DNA of 61,227 nt. Origin: an uncultured Thermoplasmatales archaeon. GTDB lineage: Archaea > Thermoplasmatota > E2 > UBA202 > DSCA01. Location of the stretch: the NCBI GenBank assembly GCA_964606745.1, contig CAZSHJ010000004.1:1-61227 (forward strand), in the 5' to 3' direction. Both the position numbers and the translations under genes were made by a program. A model generated the notes under the pieces. It ran no database searches. It was not told where the DNA came from and saw only the letters and a list, made by a program, of their open reading frames with translations. Of the stretch, positions 54,399 through 61,227 are shown piece after piece (the stretch's first letter is position 1; every line of letters begins with the position of its first letter).

Positions 54399-54497
54399 TT
54401 TGGAGTAGATTTACAACACTACACATATCTTGATGAGAATGAGTTGAAGGAGATTTACAATAAAGTAATTCCCGATTATATGATAACCAAAGCATAA
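54399..54497 (+). pseudogene. Tyrosine-integrase 3' stub 1 (repeat Z1)
   Basis: My translation FGVDLQHYTYLDENELKEIYNKVIPDYMITKA* aligns with VDLRHYAYLDAGDLKKIYDKV at 60859-61014. Confidence 0.65.
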
Positions 54498-54519
54498 ATT
54501 TACATTATATCATATTCTT

Positions 54520-56046
54520 TTATGTAAATACTTGGACAGCATATTCTGTTATTGTTTGAGTTTTTTCTGTATCTGTTGTAAGAAGATTAAATCTCAGTAC
54601 TAAATCGTTATCGTCACCGTCGCATTCGATAATAGTGTTCAAATCTTGTGATGTTGCATCCCAAGTTAATCCTCCATCTGATGATACATCTACGGTTACT
54701 ATAGTATCGGTGGGTACATTAACTTCTGCAACTATAAAAATGGAGTTTATATCAGAATTGAATGCAAAACTGTTAGTCTGAATGATGCTATTTGAAAACT
54801 CGGCTTTATATGTTTCAATATTTGACGATTGTATAACAGGACTATAAGTGGTTACAAAAGCTATTGAACTTGAATAGATTGGCTTAAATTCTACTCCATT
54901 TGGTTCCATGCCTCGATCAATTGCGAAATAGCAAATATAAACCCAATGTTCTTGGATTGCGTCATAAACCCATAAGTATAAACGAGCATGTTGGGCCACA
55001 TCTCTGCACCCAATGTCTGCCGTAACTTTGCCAATCCAAGCTTCATCAAAATGATGCCTTCTAATTACTCGTACATCTGCACCCCATCCAACTCTTTCTT
55101 CCATTCCAGGTTCCGTTGAATGCGGTAGTACTGAATTAGAATTTTGACATATATATCTATCATAATCGTATGAGTGAATGTCAGCACTCCATTCAGCATT
55201 TGTTGCTCCACCTCCTTCGTTTGGCATACTATCTTTTACAGTAAATATTCCTTTGTAATTTGCATTCGTATTTCCAACATCTATTGTATTGAGTGCTCCG
55301 CTCTCCTGAGTCATGATGTCTACAGTTGCAGTGTCGTAATGATTGTGTATTTCTGTCAAGCCTATGCTCATAGTTTCTGATAGGTAGTAGCTGTTCCACA
55401 AAGTTTGGATTATGTTCTGTAAATGTGCCGTTAAATAATCCTCATCTACAGGTCCTGCTGGTCCCATCGGTCCAGTATCTCCTGTACTGCCTTTATCTCC
55501 CTGCAGACCTTGCTCTCCTTGAGGTCCAGTTTCTCCCTGCAGACCTTGCCCTCCTTGCGGTCCTTGAGGTCCAGTATAACCCCTTGGTCCTCGCAGTCCT
55601 GTTTCGCCTTGAGGTCCAGGTGGTCCTCGAGGTCCTTCGGGACCAATTAATCCTGTTGGGTTTCCCATCCAGTTTCCATTGCTATCGATTATGATATTTC
55701 CATTTATTGCAAGATTACCAAATATATCCAGTTTGGCATTTGGATTGTTTGTCCCAATGCCTACATTGCCTTCTGGTATTAAGAACAAATTTGGTGGATT
55801 GCTCCAGTAATCCCAGTCTTTGTTGAGTATTCTATAATTTGGCAATGATGTAGAATCTTCAGACTCACCCATTTTATTTACTTCTTCCTGCAAGTTTTGA
55901 AAGACATTGTTTTCTGTTTCACTTTCCGATATAATACTATCTCTTTCTACATCGTTTTTATCTCCGTTCATTGTTCCTGCTATTGGTAAAACAACAGAGA
56001 CAATGAGTACCATACAAACTACTATACCCAATTTTTTTGCCATCAT
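54520..56046 (-). CDS. Exported collagen-repeat protein with phage tail-fibre-like motifs
   Basis: Signal peptide; [16 protein letters not shown]; 23 G-X-Y triplets (55447-55653); C-terminal VSSDGGLTW beta domain. Confidence 0.8.
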
Positions 56047-56251
56047 GTTTTCTCCCCAATAAGCAATATAAAACCAAAGATAAATCTTTTGTATAGCACA
56101 ATTGACAACTCAACTATAGTTAACAAATAGTTTTCAAGATATTCCGAAATAGTTACGCCAAACAGATGCAACTTAACTATCTGTTCCTAAAGAATTTTTT
56201 TAAGGCTCATCGATTTTTGTTTTTCTTAACTTTTTAGCCATGTATTAAATT

Positions 56252-56382
56252 GGCAGAATGTATCAAATAATTTCAGTCTACAAGATATACTGCCCCGTGG
56301 AGTCTGGTTTCCCTCTTGAAGCAATGCCCTTGTGACAGGATGCTCATCCAGTTAATGATGTAACTTTTTATCTAACTTTATT
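56252..56382. repeat. Intergenic repeat X, copy 1
   Basis: Shares TATCAAATAATT, ACAAGATATA, GCCCCGTG, TTTCCCTCTTGAAGC and ATGTAACTTTTTATCTAACTTTATT with 58086-58217. Confidence 0.85.
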
Positions 56383-56389
56383 CTTGATT

Positions 56390-56496
56390 GTTACGAATCT
56401 AAGCAGGGGTTGGTATGATTACACCTTCTTGCCCATTTTTGGTGTTTTTCTTATCTGTTGGAATGGGTTATTTTGTAACATTATTGACATGGTTTT
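56390..56496. repeat. Intergenic repeat Y, copy 1
   Basis: 59-bp core 56406-56464 is 58/59 identical to 59900-59958. Confidence 0.9.
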
Positions 56497-56644
56497 CTGT
56501 CCTATAAGCAACTACATGGAATTTATGCATCAGTGCAGGAGAATTCGAGGTAAAGAAGAGAGCTTTAAAGGTGATATTTGATATAGTAGTGACAAAAATA
56601 AATAATTTAGGTCTTATGTTGTGCTGTATCTTATTGCCGAGTAT

Positions 56645-57013
56645 TTATTCAGCAACCTGTCTTACTTTATCACCTATTCTAACTGATGATTTTTCTTCTT
56701 CTTCTTTTTTTTCTTCTTCAGACACAATTAATCTATCCCTTATATTAGCCATACTTGTTAGAATGGGAAAGGTGGAATACGAAGGAGTTGTTGCTCTGCT
56801 CATTTTTTCTTGCACTTCTCTCACGACCACTCTTGCCTTTACTATCTCAATATTACCTAATACGTTCCCAGTATCAGGATCTTTAATAGAGCTGCCCTCA
56901 TCGTATATTATAAAAGTCATTCCTTCCTTAACTCCGTGCTCAAGTCCACGATTAATATAAACAGTATACTCGTCTAAAATTCTAGCAATCTTGCCCCTAA
57001 TTAATTCAGCCAT
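56645..57013 (-). CDS. FlgT-C-like beta-barrel protein
   Basis: VYINRGLEHGVKEGMTF, IKDPDTGNVLG, VVREVQEKMS. Confidence 0.65.
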   Translation of the reverse strand: MAELIRGKIARILDEYTVYINRGLEHGVKEGMTFIIYDEGSSIKDPDTGNVLGNIEIVKARVVVREVQEKMSRATTPSYSTFPILTSMANIRDRLIVSEEEKKEEEEKSSVRIGDKVRQVAE

Positions 57014-57052
57014 TTTATCATCCTTCGTAAACCAAGAAATAGGTCACATTTT

Positions 57053-58036
57053 TTAAATATTTCCCATCATCGATTTTGTAACAAATACGGTTTTTTCCAA
57101 ATCACGGATGTCTGTTCCTTTGAAGATAGTTGGTATATGAACATACAACCTATTGCTGAATGCAGCTAAAACGTTGTTATTAAGCAAAATGTTGTTTACC
57201 TTTTCTCCCCATATGTCCTTGGAATCATCATCACACATGTAATATGCTTGGGCAAGGTCATCACTTTTCTGGAGATGAAAAACTTTCAAAGTCCCGCAAT
57301 ATTGCTCAATGCCACTCTCAATATTGAATAATTTTAATATCATGCCATTCTTTAAATATTTGCAATTTTTAATTATGGCAATCGGATGCCCTTTATTAAT
57401 TATTCTAAATTCAATAACTTTCGCATCTTCTCCATCAATTTCTTTTTGATACTTTTTAGACCAAATAATAGCTTCATATACGCTTATCATTTCCATGATT
57501 AAATCAAGTTGATTTGGTAAGATTTTTTTCTTTATATACCCAATTCCTTCAATCCCAGTTAAACGAGATATTAAATTAATTGTAAGACCCCCCCAGTCAC
57601 AGTAGGGTATATCAATGTATCTTATAAATCCTAAATCTGAGGGAATATACCTCTTTCCATCAATTTTTTGTGATAAAACTAAAACAGGTTTTTGGAACCC
57701 ATAAGCCATACCCAATTCTAACATTACATTTTCTTTTATTACTGATGACCCACCATTTTTTATCGGAGTTATGTCAGCAATACATATCTGACAAGATTGG
57801 ATCTTCTTACATATATCGCAAAATAAGCCCTTTTCTGGTGATATTTGTCTATCCGCAGTAATTAATTCGAAATTATTCTTGCCATACCTTGTTTCGAGTC
57901 CTATCTCAACTGCCAACTCTCGTAGTTCTCTTTCTCCATCGAAGGGCTCAATTAGGAAATAATGATTGGGATTTATTTTGATAGGACTGTAAGGACATTG
58001 CCCAACAACTGGACAGACTTTTATTTCTTCGTACAT
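57053..58036 (-). CDS. Nucleoside-2-deoxyribosyltransferase-like (TIR-like fold) domain plus C-terminal beta-barrel
   Basis: FLIEPF, ICIADIT, NVMLELGMAYG, KPVLVL, IPSDL..IRYI. Confidence 0.7.
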   Translation of the reverse strand: MYEEIKVCPVVGQCPYSPIKINPNHYFLIEPFDGERELRELAVEIGLETRYGKNNFELITADRQISPEKGLFCDICKKIQSCQICIADITPIKNGGSSVIKENVMLELGMAYGFQKPVLVLSQKIDGKRYIPSDLGFIRYIDIPYCDWGGLTINLISRLTGIEGIGYIKKKILPNQLDLIMEMISVYEAIIWSKKYQKEIDGEDAKVIEFRIINKGHPIAIIKNCKYLKNGMILKLFNIESGIEQYCGTLKVFHLQKSDDLAQAYYMCDDDSKDIWGEKVNNILLNNNVLAAFSNRLYVHIPTIFKGTDIRDLEKTVFVTKSMMGNI

Positions 58037-58085
58037 TTTATGTTCAGTAAGTGAATGGATAACTATAACTTAATATTTTTTGATG

Positions 58086-58217
58086 GGCAGGTTATATCAA
58101 ATAATTCTAATTGACAAGATATAACGCCCCGTGTAGTTACTTTCCCTCTTGAAGCGAATGCTCTTTATGATGTGATGTCCGTTCAATGAATAATGTAACT
58201 TTTTATCTAACTTTATT
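58086..58217. repeat. Intergenic repeat X, copy 2
   Basis: Homologous to 56252-56382. Confidence 0.85.
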
Positions 58218-58273: not shown

Positions 58274-59701
58274 TTATCGGGTGTAGTGCATCAGCACTTC
58301 TGGTATTTCATGTATTACATCACTGGCTGTCATTCCATAACCTTTTTTTTCAAAGGCAAGATTCCCTGCAGTCCCATTCATAAATGCCCCCATTCTCGCC
58401 GCATTGTATGTGGGAACATCTTTTGATAGTAAAGAGCCGATGATACCCGATAATACATCACCCGTGCCGCCAACCGTCATGCCCTCATTGTGAATATGAT
58501 TTATTTTTAAGTTTTCCCCGTTACTTATTATATCCACTGCACCCTTCAGAAGTATCGTGCATCCTCTTCTTTTCGCCTCTTTTTTCACAATCTCTTTTCT
58601 CTCCTCGAGTTCGTCCGGCAAAGTTATACCGGTCAATTCCTTAAACTCGCCGGCGTGGGGAGTTATAACGATGTTGCCATTGCATTTCCTTTCACCAAAC
58701 GCCCGTATGGCATCTGCGTCTACAACCATTTTCTTATTCAGGGATATGCCCTCGTCAATTACATCTGCAGCAAATTCCTTTGTTTCCTCTCTGTTGCCAA
58801 GCCCCGGGCCAATCACAACTGCATCCACTCTTCCGAGAAATTCCCTTATCATCGGGCTATGCTCCGCCTGCAGAAAATCTCCGTCGAGAGGCATGACTAT
58901 CATGTCGGGCGAAAATGATGCAACCATCTTCCATACTCTCCGGGGAGTGAATACAAATGACAGATCAGCTCCGGTCTTCAATGCAGCCATAGCCGCCAGG
59001 GCAGGAGCACCCGTATACGATCCCCCGCCTATCGTAAGCACCGCACCGTTCTCCCCCTTGTGGGAATTCTCCTTTGGCACGGGATAATATATCATGTCTC
59101 CGGGGCCCACCGCCACCACCGCCGCCTCCGGTATACCTATGTTTGCCACAATTATTTTGCCGCTGTTTTCCTCGGTCATTCCGTCCTTTCTATCGTGGAA
59201 GGTTACGGTCGCATCGGGCTTTACGCTTATTTTACTCCCGAAGCCGGTCGGTATGTCCACGGAAACGACTCTGGAATGGCTTCCGTTTACAATTTTTACG
59301 ATTTCTCTGTACGGCTGCCGCAGTTCCCCGGATATGCCTATGCCGAGCATCGCATCCACAATCAGTTCGCTTTCATGCAATATTTTTTCAATCCCGCTCC
59401 CGTAGCGTTGGACAAAAATGCCCAGTTTTTTTACTTTCCTGAAATTCTTTCTGGCAAGCAACGACTTTGATTCCTTCAACATTACAACATTAACATTGCA
59501 CTTTCTCGAAAGGTAACGGGCGGCAACAAGCCCATCTCCTCCGTTGTTACCTGACCCGCATAAAACAGTACAGCATCTGCAATCGAATTTTTTGTTTATA
59601 AAATCAGCTACCGCCCTTCCTGCGTTTTCCATCAGCATCCCGGCAGGAACTCCATAAAAAGCCGAATTGGCATCAAGCACCTTGACTTCCGTCGGACGCA
59701 T
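58274..59701 (-). CDS. nnr: Bifunctional NAD(P)H-hydrate epimerase/dehydratase
   Basis: LMENAG, GSGNNGGDG, SHKGENG, TPHAGEF, GGTGDVLSG. Confidence 0.95.
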   Translation of the reverse strand: MRPTEVKVLDANSAFYGVPAGMLMENAGRAVADFINKKFDCRCCTVLCGSGNNGGDGLVAARYLSRKCNVNVVMLKESKSLLARKNFRKVKKLGIFVQRYGSGIEKILHESELIVDAMLGIGISGELRQPYREIVKIVNGSHSRVVSVDIPTGFGSKISVKPDATVTFHDRKDGMTEENSGKIIVANIGIPEAAVVAVGPGDMIYYPVPKENSHKGENGAVLTIGGGSYTGAPALAAMAALKTGADLSFVFTPRRVWKMVASFSPDMIVMPLDGDFLQAEHSPMIREFLGRVDAVVIGPGLGNREETKEFAADVIDEGISLNKKMVVDADAIRAFGERKCNGNIVITPHAGEFKELTGITLPDELEERKEIVKKEAKRRGCTILLKGAVDIISNGENLKINHIHNEGMTVGGTGDVLSGIIGSLLSKDVPTYNAARMGAFMNGTAGNLAFEKKGYGMTASDVIHEIPEVLMHYTR

Positions 59702-59823: not shown

Positions 59824-59882
59824 TAATTTGGGGTAGATTTACAATAAAGTAATTCCTGATTATATGATAACCAAGGCATAAA
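59824..59882 (+). pseudogene. Tyrosine-integrase 3' stub 2 (repeat Z2) with a 44-bp internal deletion
   Basis: Matches 54396-54498 but lacks the segment between the two AGATTTACAA repeats (54407 and 54451). Confidence 0.7.
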
Positions 59883-59884
59883 GC

Positions 59885-59990
59885 GTTACGAAACTCAAGG
59901 GGGTTGGTATGATTACACCTTTTTGCCCATTTTTGGTGTTTTTCTTATCTGTTGGAATCGGCTAAATTGTAACACTAGTGACATGATTTT
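59885..59990. repeat. Intergenic repeat Y, copy 2
   Basis: Directly follows the Z2 stop codon; homologous to 56390-56496. Confidence 0.9.
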
Positions 59991-60658: not shown

Positions 60659-60862
60659 ATGTCTGTTATAAAGAGTATAGAGCTCATAGGCAGCTCCCCG
60701 GACGGCTGGGAGGATGCTGTAAGGAATGCTATAGACGAGGCGAGAAAAACCATAAGAAACATAAGGAGGGTTACGGTAAGTGACCTCGAAGTGCTCGTGG
60801 AGGATGACCGGATAGTGTCGTACCAGTCAAAGGTAAAACTCTATTTCACCATAGAGGGATGA
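60659..60862 (+). CDS. Dodecin-family protein
   Basis: IELIGSSPDGWEDAVRNAI, KTIRNI, YQSKVKL. Confidence 0.92.
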   Translation: MSVIKSIELIGSSPDGWEDAVRNAIDEARKTIRNIRRVTVSDLEVLVEDDRIVSYQSKVKLYFTIEG

Positions 60863-61014
60863 AAGATATAGAAGGGGGAGATGCAGCCAAGGAGATTTTG
60901 ATGGGGCATTCATTGAAGGGCAGCGTTGATCTACGGCATTATGCTTATTTAGATGCGGGGGATTTGAAAAAGATTTACGATAAAGTTGGAGTAAAAATAG
61001 GCTTAGGGCGTTAA
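60859..61014 (+). pseudogene. Tyrosine-integrase 3' stub 3 (box II region)
   Basis: MKDIEGGDAAKEILMGHSLKGSVDLRHYAYLDAGDLKKIYDKVGVKIGLGR*; LMGH followed by a candidate catalytic Tyr (HYAY). Confidence 0.7.
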
Positions 61015-61038
61015 AGAAAACTGAACATATAAATTCAA

Positions 61039-61227
61039 ACTAATAGAGAGGGTATATACTTACAGATATAAATTAACTAACTAATAGAGAGGGTATATAC
61101 TTACAGATATAAATTAACTAACTAATAGAGAGGGTATATACTTACAGATTAGAATTAATAAGTAATAGATAAGGTATATACTTACAGATTAGAATTAATA
61201 AGTAATAGATAAGGTATATACTTACAG
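61039..61227. repeat. 40/41-bp minisatellite truncated by the window end
   Basis: Core GGTATATACTTACAG at 61051, 61092, 61133, 61173, 61213 (periods 41, 41, 40, 40); two unit variants. Confidence 0.95.

Follow-up and report, generated by a model that had tools for sequence, protein, structure and literature searches.

Cleavage of nicotinamide adenine dinucleotide (NAD+) by effectors of the TIR type is central to immunity in bacteria, plants and animals alike, and each new mode of controlling such effectors, be it through STING, a CNBD or a phage portal, has so far been informative. The NADase activity of Cap12 (the TIR-STING of CBASS) and of PycTIR (Pycsar) is switched on by oligomerisation (PMC9402430, PMC11224242), that of the defence island-associated Swarozyc, whose C-terminal part is sensing, is autoinhibited through the way the protein assembles until a structural protein of the phage, the portal, turns it on (bioRxiv 10.64898/2026.05.01.722283), and TIRs of the Thoeris type produce signals rather than deplete NAD+ (PMC11204291). 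Here we analyse a pair of genes, referred to as A and B, in a 61,227-nt stretch of DNA from an uncultured Thermoplasmatales archaeon (contig CAZSHJ010000004.1 of assembly GCA_964606745.1, positions 1 to 61,227 of the forward strand; hereafter the window). The two open reading frames (ORFs), both on the minus strand, fill positions 56645-58036: gene A (57053-58036) encodes a 327-residue protein with a four-cysteine (Cys4) TIR/nucleoside 2'-deoxyribosyltransferase (NDT)-like domain, a helical stalk, a FlgT_C-like barrel and a C-terminal α/β tail, and gene B (56645-57013) a 122-residue, stand-alone FlgT_C-type β-barrel. An earlier note on this DNA, made from its letters alone, had read these ORFs of 327 and 122 codons as an undescribed two-gene antiviral or signalling system. 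Both ORFs lie where that note had placed them, and the pair is indeed absent from Pfam, NCBIfam, PADLOC 2.0 and the literature searched, in which no paper on a TIR-like plus FlgT_C pair, and none on the PADLOC candidate PDC-S35, was found.

A two-gene unit of a TIR-like enzyme and a barrel

Relatives of A were collected by an exhaustive HMMER search of 1.8 billion protein representatives, which returned 100 sequences, about 25 of them full-length (300-340 aa); word-indexed searches with single proteins under-reported the family (three matches for A and one for B), and exhaustive or profile searches were needed. The loci compared came from nine species-representative genomes, located with a nine-sequence alignment of the A family, from metagenomes (ten loci) and from homologues of B (13 loci). 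In every locus with enough sequence, about 25, B was found directly 3' of A on the same strand, the distance between the two genes ranging from -25 to +60 nt, and pairwise distances among A proteins correlated with those among B proteins (r = 0.85; Mantel, 0 of 2000). A and B form one strictly conserved, co-evolving two-gene unit, and the pairing proposed in the earlier note holds across the family. No third conserved gene was present at any of the ~25 loci.

The decayed copies of the unit share a direction. The same frameshift in A, next to an intact B, recurs within one lineage in three assemblies that are independent of each other (L039, L042 and L043; positions 5977-7013 of L039), A is truncated N-terminally behind an ISL3 transposase gene in L049 (1534-3902), again with B intact, and L037 (26-334) holds a 102-aa fragment of A adjoining a Schlafen/AlbA_2 gene. 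An intact A without B was never encountered at the loci examined. Small as the numbers are, this pattern, with A broken and B kept, is as expected if A is harmful without B.

An AlphaFold2 (AF2) model of A built on a 23-sequence alignment (predicted local distance difference test score, pLDDT, 85) comprises an α/β domain (residues 22-145), a helix (174-204), a β-barrel (206-267) and a small α/β tail. In the window, and on the minus strand throughout, the TIR/NDT-fold domain (residues 1-160), supported by Foldseek, by Pfam and PADLOC TIR matches, by conservation and by alignment of its motifs to Cap12 and PycTIR, is encoded at 57557-58036, the long helix, a stalk or coiled coil assigned by DSSP on the model (pLDDT 81-97), at 57425-57517, and the barrel, supported by hhalign, by the modelled strands and by conservation, at 57236-57421. 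The first domain has a flavodoxin-like three-layer α/β fold with a parallel sheet, and it alone was matched when the model was searched against the PDB with Foldseek (E 1e-5 to 1e-3, TM-to-target 0.5-0.7). TIR-STING (7un8, 9lmq), nucleoside 2'-deoxyribosyltransferases, BcmB and DNPH1 were all retrieved near E 1e-5, and animal TIR domains, that of IL-1RAcPb among them, near E 5e-4. Fold and conserved Glu place the domain in the TIR/NDT superfamily (Pfam clans STIR, CL0173, and Nribosyltransf, CL0498).

Conservation was scored over 41 family sequences: F27, R39, E40, N103, E107 and G109 are invariant in all 41, and C8, C14, C73, C76, D33, D88, K116 and P117 are kept in 38-40 of them (the four cysteines in 39-40). 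The corresponding motifs of A are FLIEPFD, RE (39-40), D88, N103-x3-E107-L-G, K116-P117 and P132-S-D134; the N-terminal Cys pair (C8 and C14) and the NDT-like core ADIT ... ENVMLELGMAYG ... KP noted earlier are both present. E107, whose codon occupies 57716-57718 (minus strand), coincides in position with the catalytic Glu of TIR NADases and with the NDT nucleophile and is presumably catalytic; E107-L-G aligns with the Glu of the NVxFEFG/NVxLEFG motif of Cap12 and PycTIR. The four cysteines (CPxxGxC ... CDIC) are most simply, and probably, explained by a structural Zn site.

As to its family, A from the window matched the NDT family PF05014 with an E of 3.8e-5 (24.2 bits, under the gathering cutoff of 28.8) and the CAP12/PycTIR TIR family PF10137 with an E of 2e-3 (18.4 bits); on this score, which falls under a cutoff of 24.7, it would rank as a distant relative of PF10137 and not as a member by Pfam's own criterion. 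NCBIfam returned nothing for A or B, and phmmer found no match to A among PDB sequences. Across 23 members of the family (E <= 0.1), PF10137 was matched by 22 (best E 8e-7) and PF05014 by 17, DUF4062 (PF13271) and FlgT_C by none, and the PADLOC models for the CBASS 'Effector TIR', PycTIR and PDC-S35 by up to 17, by 6 and by 10, respectively. The label 'NDT/TIR-like' given to A in the earlier note thus stands as regards the superfamily, with the Glu kept in 41/41 sequences, and shifts as regards the nearest family, which is CAP12/PycTIR rather than NDT. A profile of the A family ranked Cap12 (7un8) and PycTIR (8jsj) on top among PDB sequences, at E values of 0.08 and 0.33 that are not significant, and the profile alignment revealed motifs common to all three, RxNVxxExG and (I/L)P(S/T)D. 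Taken together, the sequence comparisons suggest that the domain forms a Cys4 subfamily of its own within the TIR/NDT superfamily, closest to the Cap12/PycTIR type. Assignment of A to the nucleoside 2-deoxyribosyltransferases (PF05014) was rejected on the bit score given above and on the Asp of the DxGTxxE motif, six residues before the Glu, which is replaced by Arg, Lys or Asn in the A family.

The same Cys4 TIR-like domain also occurs outside the pair. It is fused to a coiled coil and long TPR arrays in five proteins (P0026, P0038, P0041, P0043 and P0057) and lies C-terminal to a response-regulator receiver domain in two others (P0039 and P0052), these fused forms carrying the motifs YCPxVGGxC, FFLAEPF, FCDIC and NPNVLLELG. 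They are likely to be other sensor-effector architectures.

Protein B, in turn, is a member of FlgT_C (PF16538) both by sequence (30.0 bits, above the 27-bit gathering cutoff) and by its barrel fold. In its AF2 model (pLDDT 76), the barrel consists of residues 5-76 and a closing strand, 112-120, and is split by a disordered acidic linker (residues 79-107). Foldseek matched this model to FlgT (8z5n, 3w1e; E 1e-5 to 9e-5) and TsaP and, more weakly, to the N-terminal crown barrels of F1/V1-ATPase subunits. The earlier note had remarked on a similar barrel pattern in A and B. Pairwise BLASTP of A against B detected nothing; hhalign, comparing the profile of the A-family barrel with that of the B family, aligned it to B residues 16-79 with a probability of 95-96% and an E of 3e-9 to 2e-8, and by this profile-profile result the likeness is one of real homology. 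Conserved residues in the barrel of A are E244, G248, H254, Q256 and Q263. A profile search gathered at least 312 clusters of B-family proteins at 90% identity, all annotated as hypothetical. Searches of Pfam, NCBIfam and further libraries revealed no known antitoxin domain in B, and no signal peptide is apparent in the sequence of B or A. A flagellar or pilus role for B was considered and rejected, given the archaeal host, the missing signal peptide and the absence of motility genes from every locus. Phages also encode stand-alone FlgT_C-type barrel proteins of 95-130 aa (phrog_27728; BFVD A0A160DEQ2 from Gordonia phage OneUp, and A0A8S5TN59), with TM-to-target values of up to 0.81 against B; they might imitate regulators of the B type, or simply serve as structural parts.

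Distribution, neighbourhoods and flanking repeats

The genomes carrying the pair belong to ANME-1/Methanophagales, Methanothrix/Methanotrichaceae, a Methanomicrobia metagenome-assembled genome, two Cloacimonadota and a Desulfobacteria, to which metagenomes are to be added. The archaeon's own genome (1.79 Mb in 103 contigs) holds a single copy, and none of 40 related genomes, four of the same genus and eight of the same family included, holds a full-length homologue. A from the window groups with that of the metagenomic locus L001 (44% identity) in a clade apart from the ANME/Cloacimonadota clade. The G+C content of the pair is 33.7% against 42.1% for the genome, within the lowest 4.5% of 1.4-kb genome windows, and the AT-richness remarked on earlier is borne out. 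A and B thus make up a patchy, cross-domain and horizontally moving accessory cassette of atypical composition. No relative of A was found on viral contigs in our scan, and A had no match in PHROGs.

The pair is flanked in the window by ordinary genes: on one side lies a NAD(P)HX epimerase/dehydratase (Nnr) gene (58274-59701), on the other a minus-strand gene for a 508-aa collagen-repeat protein (54520-56046), and past the latter come MobB-like and PitA-like genes. The 508-aa protein includes a collagen triple-helix stretch (PF01391) and a signal-anchor-like N-terminus, its gene is as low in G+C as the A-B pair, and in PHROGs the protein matches only phage tail fibres, within their collagen segments. 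We considered whether the interval between MobB and Nnr might be a conserved defence hotspot and rejected the idea: a genome of the same family (L027; G005:C4 6780-11103) has kept the MobB-Nnr synteny and carries hutU (urocanate hydratase), hutH (histidine ammonia-lyase) and a phzF-like gene in that slot, which is variable and not dedicated to defence.

Elsewhere, restriction-modification (RM), toxin-antitoxin, Schlafen or transposase genes neighbour the pair at ~13-15 of ~23 distinct loci, the loci being phylogenetically non-independent. Most frequent is an Eco57I-like type IIG RM gene, with HSDR_N nuclease, N6 methylase and TaqI_C domains, which lies 5' of A in eight loci. It abuts A directly in L003, L004, L005 (the same as L030), L006, L008, L031 and L048, overlapping the start of A by ~20 nt in L005 and L008, and is separated from A by one 337-aa gene in L002, where a Fic gene is also present. 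The RM enzyme of L004 is only ~29% identical to those of the other loci, and two unrelated RM lineages are thus involved. The remaining neighbours are diverse: Mrr_cat and DpnII-type endonucleases 5' and a Schlafen/AlbA_2 gene 3' of the pair in L009, a ParE toxin in L010, the Schlafen gene of L037, MqsA-, DUF4258- and HicB-like genes in L044, a PIN/AF2212 pair in addition to the RM gene in L048, and a DUF1156 methylase-like and a DUF499 ATPase-like gene in L052, which, after Makarova et al. 2011, we take to be defence genes. No cyclase of the CD-NTase or PycC families was seen among the neighbours at the ~25 loci.

A further feature of the loci concerns their borders. At 10 of 19 loci, the sequence just 5' of A is repeated in direct orientation just 3' of B, the repeats being 54-558 nt long, 74-94% identical and made of local sequence; as controls, 400 random 1.4-kb segments of the archaeon's own genome yielded only two cases of such flanking repeats, and 190 other segments from the loci with the pair yielded one. 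Where the pair is linked to an RM gene, it is the 3' tail of that gene (...IDxLVYxLYGLTEEEIxxVE) that is repeated; the 5' copy completes an intact gene and the 3' copy is a remnant with stops, a duplication found in L005, L008, L002, L004 and L048; in L005, the 89-nt repeats come within 0-2 nt of the start of A and the stop of B. In L040 (6770-8725), the repeat corresponds to the promoter region and first 108 nt of ybaB, the ybaB remnant ending 2 nt before the ATG of A and an intact ybaB-recR operon lying 3' of the cassette, apparently the result of an insertion that duplicated ~200-300 nt of target. Campbell-type integration of a circle with a homology patch is one possible origin of these repeats and a cis-mobilisable cassette bounded by att-like repeats another; each fits in part.

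The window's own copy is likewise bracketed, and the 'Y-X cassette' in which the earlier note had placed it is made of real repeats. Repeat X2 (58083-58217), directly 5' of A, and X1 (56249-56382), 263-396 nt 3' of B and 5' of the collagen-like gene, are direct repeats with 79% identity over 136 nt, and a third copy lies beyond the window (C4:62326-62454). Y1 (56406-56496), also 3' of B, is 91% identical to Y2 (59900-59990), and Z is found at 54444-54498 and 59828-59882; a Z-Y unit of ~146 nt recurs on contigs C67 and C8. X, Y and Z, all low-copy intergenic repeat families, enclose the stretch from the collagen-like gene through the A-B pair to the Nnr gene, and Rfam and tRNA scans of 53.5-61.2 kb returned nothing that would account for them. 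Z1 encodes a C-terminal tyrosine integrase stub, the plus-strand translation of 54405-54467 (VDLQHYTYLD...) being 67% identical to a plus-strand stub ORF at 60859-61014 (GHS...RHYAYLD...). Past the window, two ORFs (C4:62586-63128 and C4:66628-67683) look by eye like full-length tyrosine integrases. These stubs and the nearby integrase-like ORFs suggest, as far as their sequences can be read, repeated integration events in the region. The last 200 nt of the window (61028-61227) consist of a 40/41-nt tandem repeat in at least five copies, with the core GGTATATACTTACAG, which runs off the end and is followed by a run of N.

Signals for expression could be proposed by reading the DNA around the pair. 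An A/T-rich box, AAAAATATTAAGTTATAG (58063-58080, minus strand), 27-44 nt 5' of the ATG of A, is a candidate archaeal B recognition element/TATA box (BRE/TATA); with no obvious ribosome-binding site ahead of that ATG, the transcript may be leaderless or have a short leader. The 39-nt spacer between A and B (57014-57052, minus strand) contains a Shine-Dalgarno-like GAAGGATGA (57018-57026, minus strand) that ends 4 nt before the ATG of B and whose GGA core (57021-57023) is 7 nt from it, and a T-rich run, ATTATTTATTTTTG (56593-56605, minus strand), ~40 nt past the stop of B, is a candidate archaeal oligo-T terminator. A leaderless first gene followed by a second gene led by a Shine-Dalgarno sequence would be the usual archaeal layout.

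A proposed function and its alternatives

The reading that we favour, tentatively and at somewhat less than even chances, is that A and B are a toxic effector and its barrel regulator, encoded by a mobile two-gene operon and used in antiviral defence or abortive infection. A would have to be the effector, because B has neither a catalytic nor a membrane domain. It would be a TIR-fold N-glycosidase like Cap12 and PycTIR, with an N-terminal domain stabilised by the probable Zn(Cys)4 site and with Glu107 cleaving NAD+ or a related nucleotide. The long helix would join this domain to the FlgT_C-type barrel, a regulatory or oligomerisation module, and stalk and barrel together would determine how the TIR-like domains assemble. 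B, a paralogue of the barrel of A, would be made in fixed proportion off the same transcript, dock on the barrel of A, join the assembly and keep the TIR-like domains inactive until a trigger such as infection displaced or remodelled it and A became active. FlgT_C-type barrels (FlgT, TsaP) and F1-crown barrels build rings through lateral contacts. We propose control of assembly through the barrels because of these ring-forming relatives and because known relatives of the enzyme domain begin to deplete NAD+ when oligomerised by a fused sensor. We infer substrate, toxicity, A-B contact and antiviral role alike.

Several observations weigh against this proposal. A from the window scores below the Pfam gathering thresholds of both PF05014 and PF10137, PADLOC yielded no significant match for the proteins of the window, A included, and sequence cannot separate NAD+ from other N-glycosidic substrates. 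The order of the genes, with the small partner after the enzyme, is not the one usual in classical type II toxin-antitoxin pairs. Defence genes adjoin the pair neither at the window's own locus nor at that of its nearest relative, L001, nor were any found near it in L007, L032/L035/L036, L040, L046 or L050, and several copies sit amid housekeeping genes (L040, L046, L035/L036). Adjacency to RM genes is phylogenetically clustered, the RM-linked copies being essentially one clade plus L004, and it may reflect a landing site or integration route as much as function, because duplicated RM tails flank the cassette even in L046, where remnants of them lie on both sides and no RM gene is present. The association with defence islands expected in the earlier note accordingly holds for roughly 60% of the loci, fails at the window and at L001, and as regards type IIG genes comes mostly from one clade.

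Much of the same evidence would suit a plain addiction cassette, with A the toxin and B its neutraliser, serving only its own maintenance and spread and having no antiviral role. The two genes lie close together, often overlap and have evolved jointly; where copies have decayed, it was A that went first; defence genes are missing from the surroundings of many loci; and the flanking direct repeats would be the cassette's own signature of mobility. We nevertheless consider this unlikely, as B has none of the DNA-binding or protease-labile hallmarks of antitoxins, the toxin would come first, the enzyme domain has its closest relatives in sequence among genuine antiphage effectors, and the Cys4 TIR-like domain also occurs in single-gene fusions to TPR arrays, which are typical of immunity proteins. 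That the unit is instead a metabolic enzyme of the NDT, DNPH1 or BcmB type, housekeeping or niche-specific, with B a small regulatory or assembly subunit, is slightly less probable still in our view. NDT is the best single Pfam match of A from the window, Foldseek matches to NDT, DNPH1 and BcmB equal those to TIR-STING, and some loci lie among metabolic genes; yet a pair absent from 40 of 40 relatives and scattered across domains, with atypical G+C content, flanking repeats and repeated pseudogenisation, does not behave like one, the NDT-type Asp at -6 (DxGT) has given way to Arg, Lys or Asn, and matches over the whole family favour the TIR-like one.

PrrC, which guards EcoprrI and fires upon inhibition of the RM enzyme, offers a precedent for a third explanation, in which the pair is an accessory of type IIG RM enzymes, a guard or regulator, and RM-less copies such as the window's are orphans. 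The Eco57I-like gene directly 5' of A in seven loci and one gene away in L002, its overlap with the start of A in L005 and L008, and the involvement of two unrelated RM lineages speak for it. Most loci, those of the window and its clade included, however, have no RM gene, the RM-linked copies are confined as described above, and the RM tails that travel with the cassette (L046) point to an integration route, so that we regard this explanation as improbable. Least credible to us is the possibility that the TIR-like domain is a non-catalytic scaffold, or makes a messenger of the cyclic ADP-ribose type for an effector encoded elsewhere. Relatives of the domain are fused to receiver domains (P0039, P0052), and Thoeris-type TIRs do act by signalling; on the other hand, no third gene is conserved in the ~25 loci to supply an effector, B has no enzymatic or membrane domain to act as one, and a mere scaffold is disfavoured because the catalytic-type Glu and the motifs around it are invariant.

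A more specific reading, to which we give little credence, is that of an integrase-less, self-contained mobile immunity cassette that makes target duplications of ~90-560 bp and whose NADase is silenced in a hetero-oligomeric ring of alternating A and B barrels. Such a cassette would insert near or into host genes (the conserved 3' tail of a type IIG RM gene, the promoter and 5' end of ybaB), borrowing their expression signals and homing to RM genes, and the ring, resembling those of FlgT/TsaP and of the F1-ATPase crown barrels, would be opened by a viral ring-forming protein.

If the pair is an immune system, it would add to the known modes of TIR control a FlgT_C-type barrel duplicated in cis and in trans, and to the effectors themselves a Cys4 subfamily of the TIR-like domain that is also found in TPR- and receiver-fused forms. 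It occurs mainly in hard-to-culture anaerobic archaea (ANME-1, Methanothrix and the present archaeon) and their bacterial neighbours, in which very few defence systems have been characterised, and through the bacterial homologues, from Cloacimonadota and Desulfobacteria, it is open to testing in Escherichia coli. The long target duplications at its borders bear on the puzzle of how small defence cassettes move without a recombinase of their own, and caution against equating adjacency to RM genes with functional linkage.

Comparison with described systems

The barrels of FlgT (C-terminal domain) and TsaP are those that B resembles by Pfam threshold and fold. In contrast to them, A and B are cytoplasmic, to judge from the missing signal peptides, and are found in archaeal cells, where the bacterial flagellum and H-ring are absent, and the barrel of B is split by a linker. 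With the N-glycosidases NDT, DNPH1 and BcmB (PF05014 clan), A has the fold and the position of the Glu in common; it differs from them in lacking the Asp of DxGT, in possessing a Cys4 site, a stalk and a barrel, and in being accessory and mobile.

Among defence systems, Thoeris (the TIR protein ThsB plus ThsA) resembles A-B in being a two-gene system with a TIR-type enzyme. ThsA, however, has a SIR2, Macro or transmembrane effector and a SLOG sensor, whereas B is a 122-aa barrel without an effector domain; membership of Thoeris was rejected, there being no ThsA. Swarozyc, a DUF4062 TIR-like NADase, shares with A a TIR/NDT-like domain whose Glu is conserved, followed by a helical stalk and a further C-terminal part. 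It is, however, a single-gene system, while in the A family the C-terminal domain is another one and a partner protein is present, and membership of A in Swarozyc/DUF4062 was rejected, as none of 23 family members matched PF13271 at E <= 0.1. PDC-S35 is listed in PADLOC as a single-gene candidate; its models are matched by 10 of the 23 A-family members (best E 9.5e-8), probably via the TIR-like domain, and not by A from the window at E 0.1 or better.

Nearest to the enzyme domain of A by sequence profile are CBASS Cap12 and Pycsar PycTIR, which, like A, fuse a TIR-like domain bearing the RxNVxxExG and (I/L)P(S/T)D motifs to a separate regulatory domain. In A, that regulatory domain is a FlgT_C-type barrel instead of STING or a CNBD, and the TIR-like domain carries an additional N-terminal elaboration with four cysteines. 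Membership in CBASS or Pycsar was rejected on the absence of a CD-NTase or PycC cyclase at the ~25 loci and of any STING, SAVED or CNBD sensor, with just A and B conserved. Effector modules of the TIR type are thus known; what the databases and literature searched lack is the present architecture, in which a stalk connects a Cys4 TIR-like domain to a FlgT_C barrel and, with no cyclase, a second, free-standing barrel is the obligatory partner.

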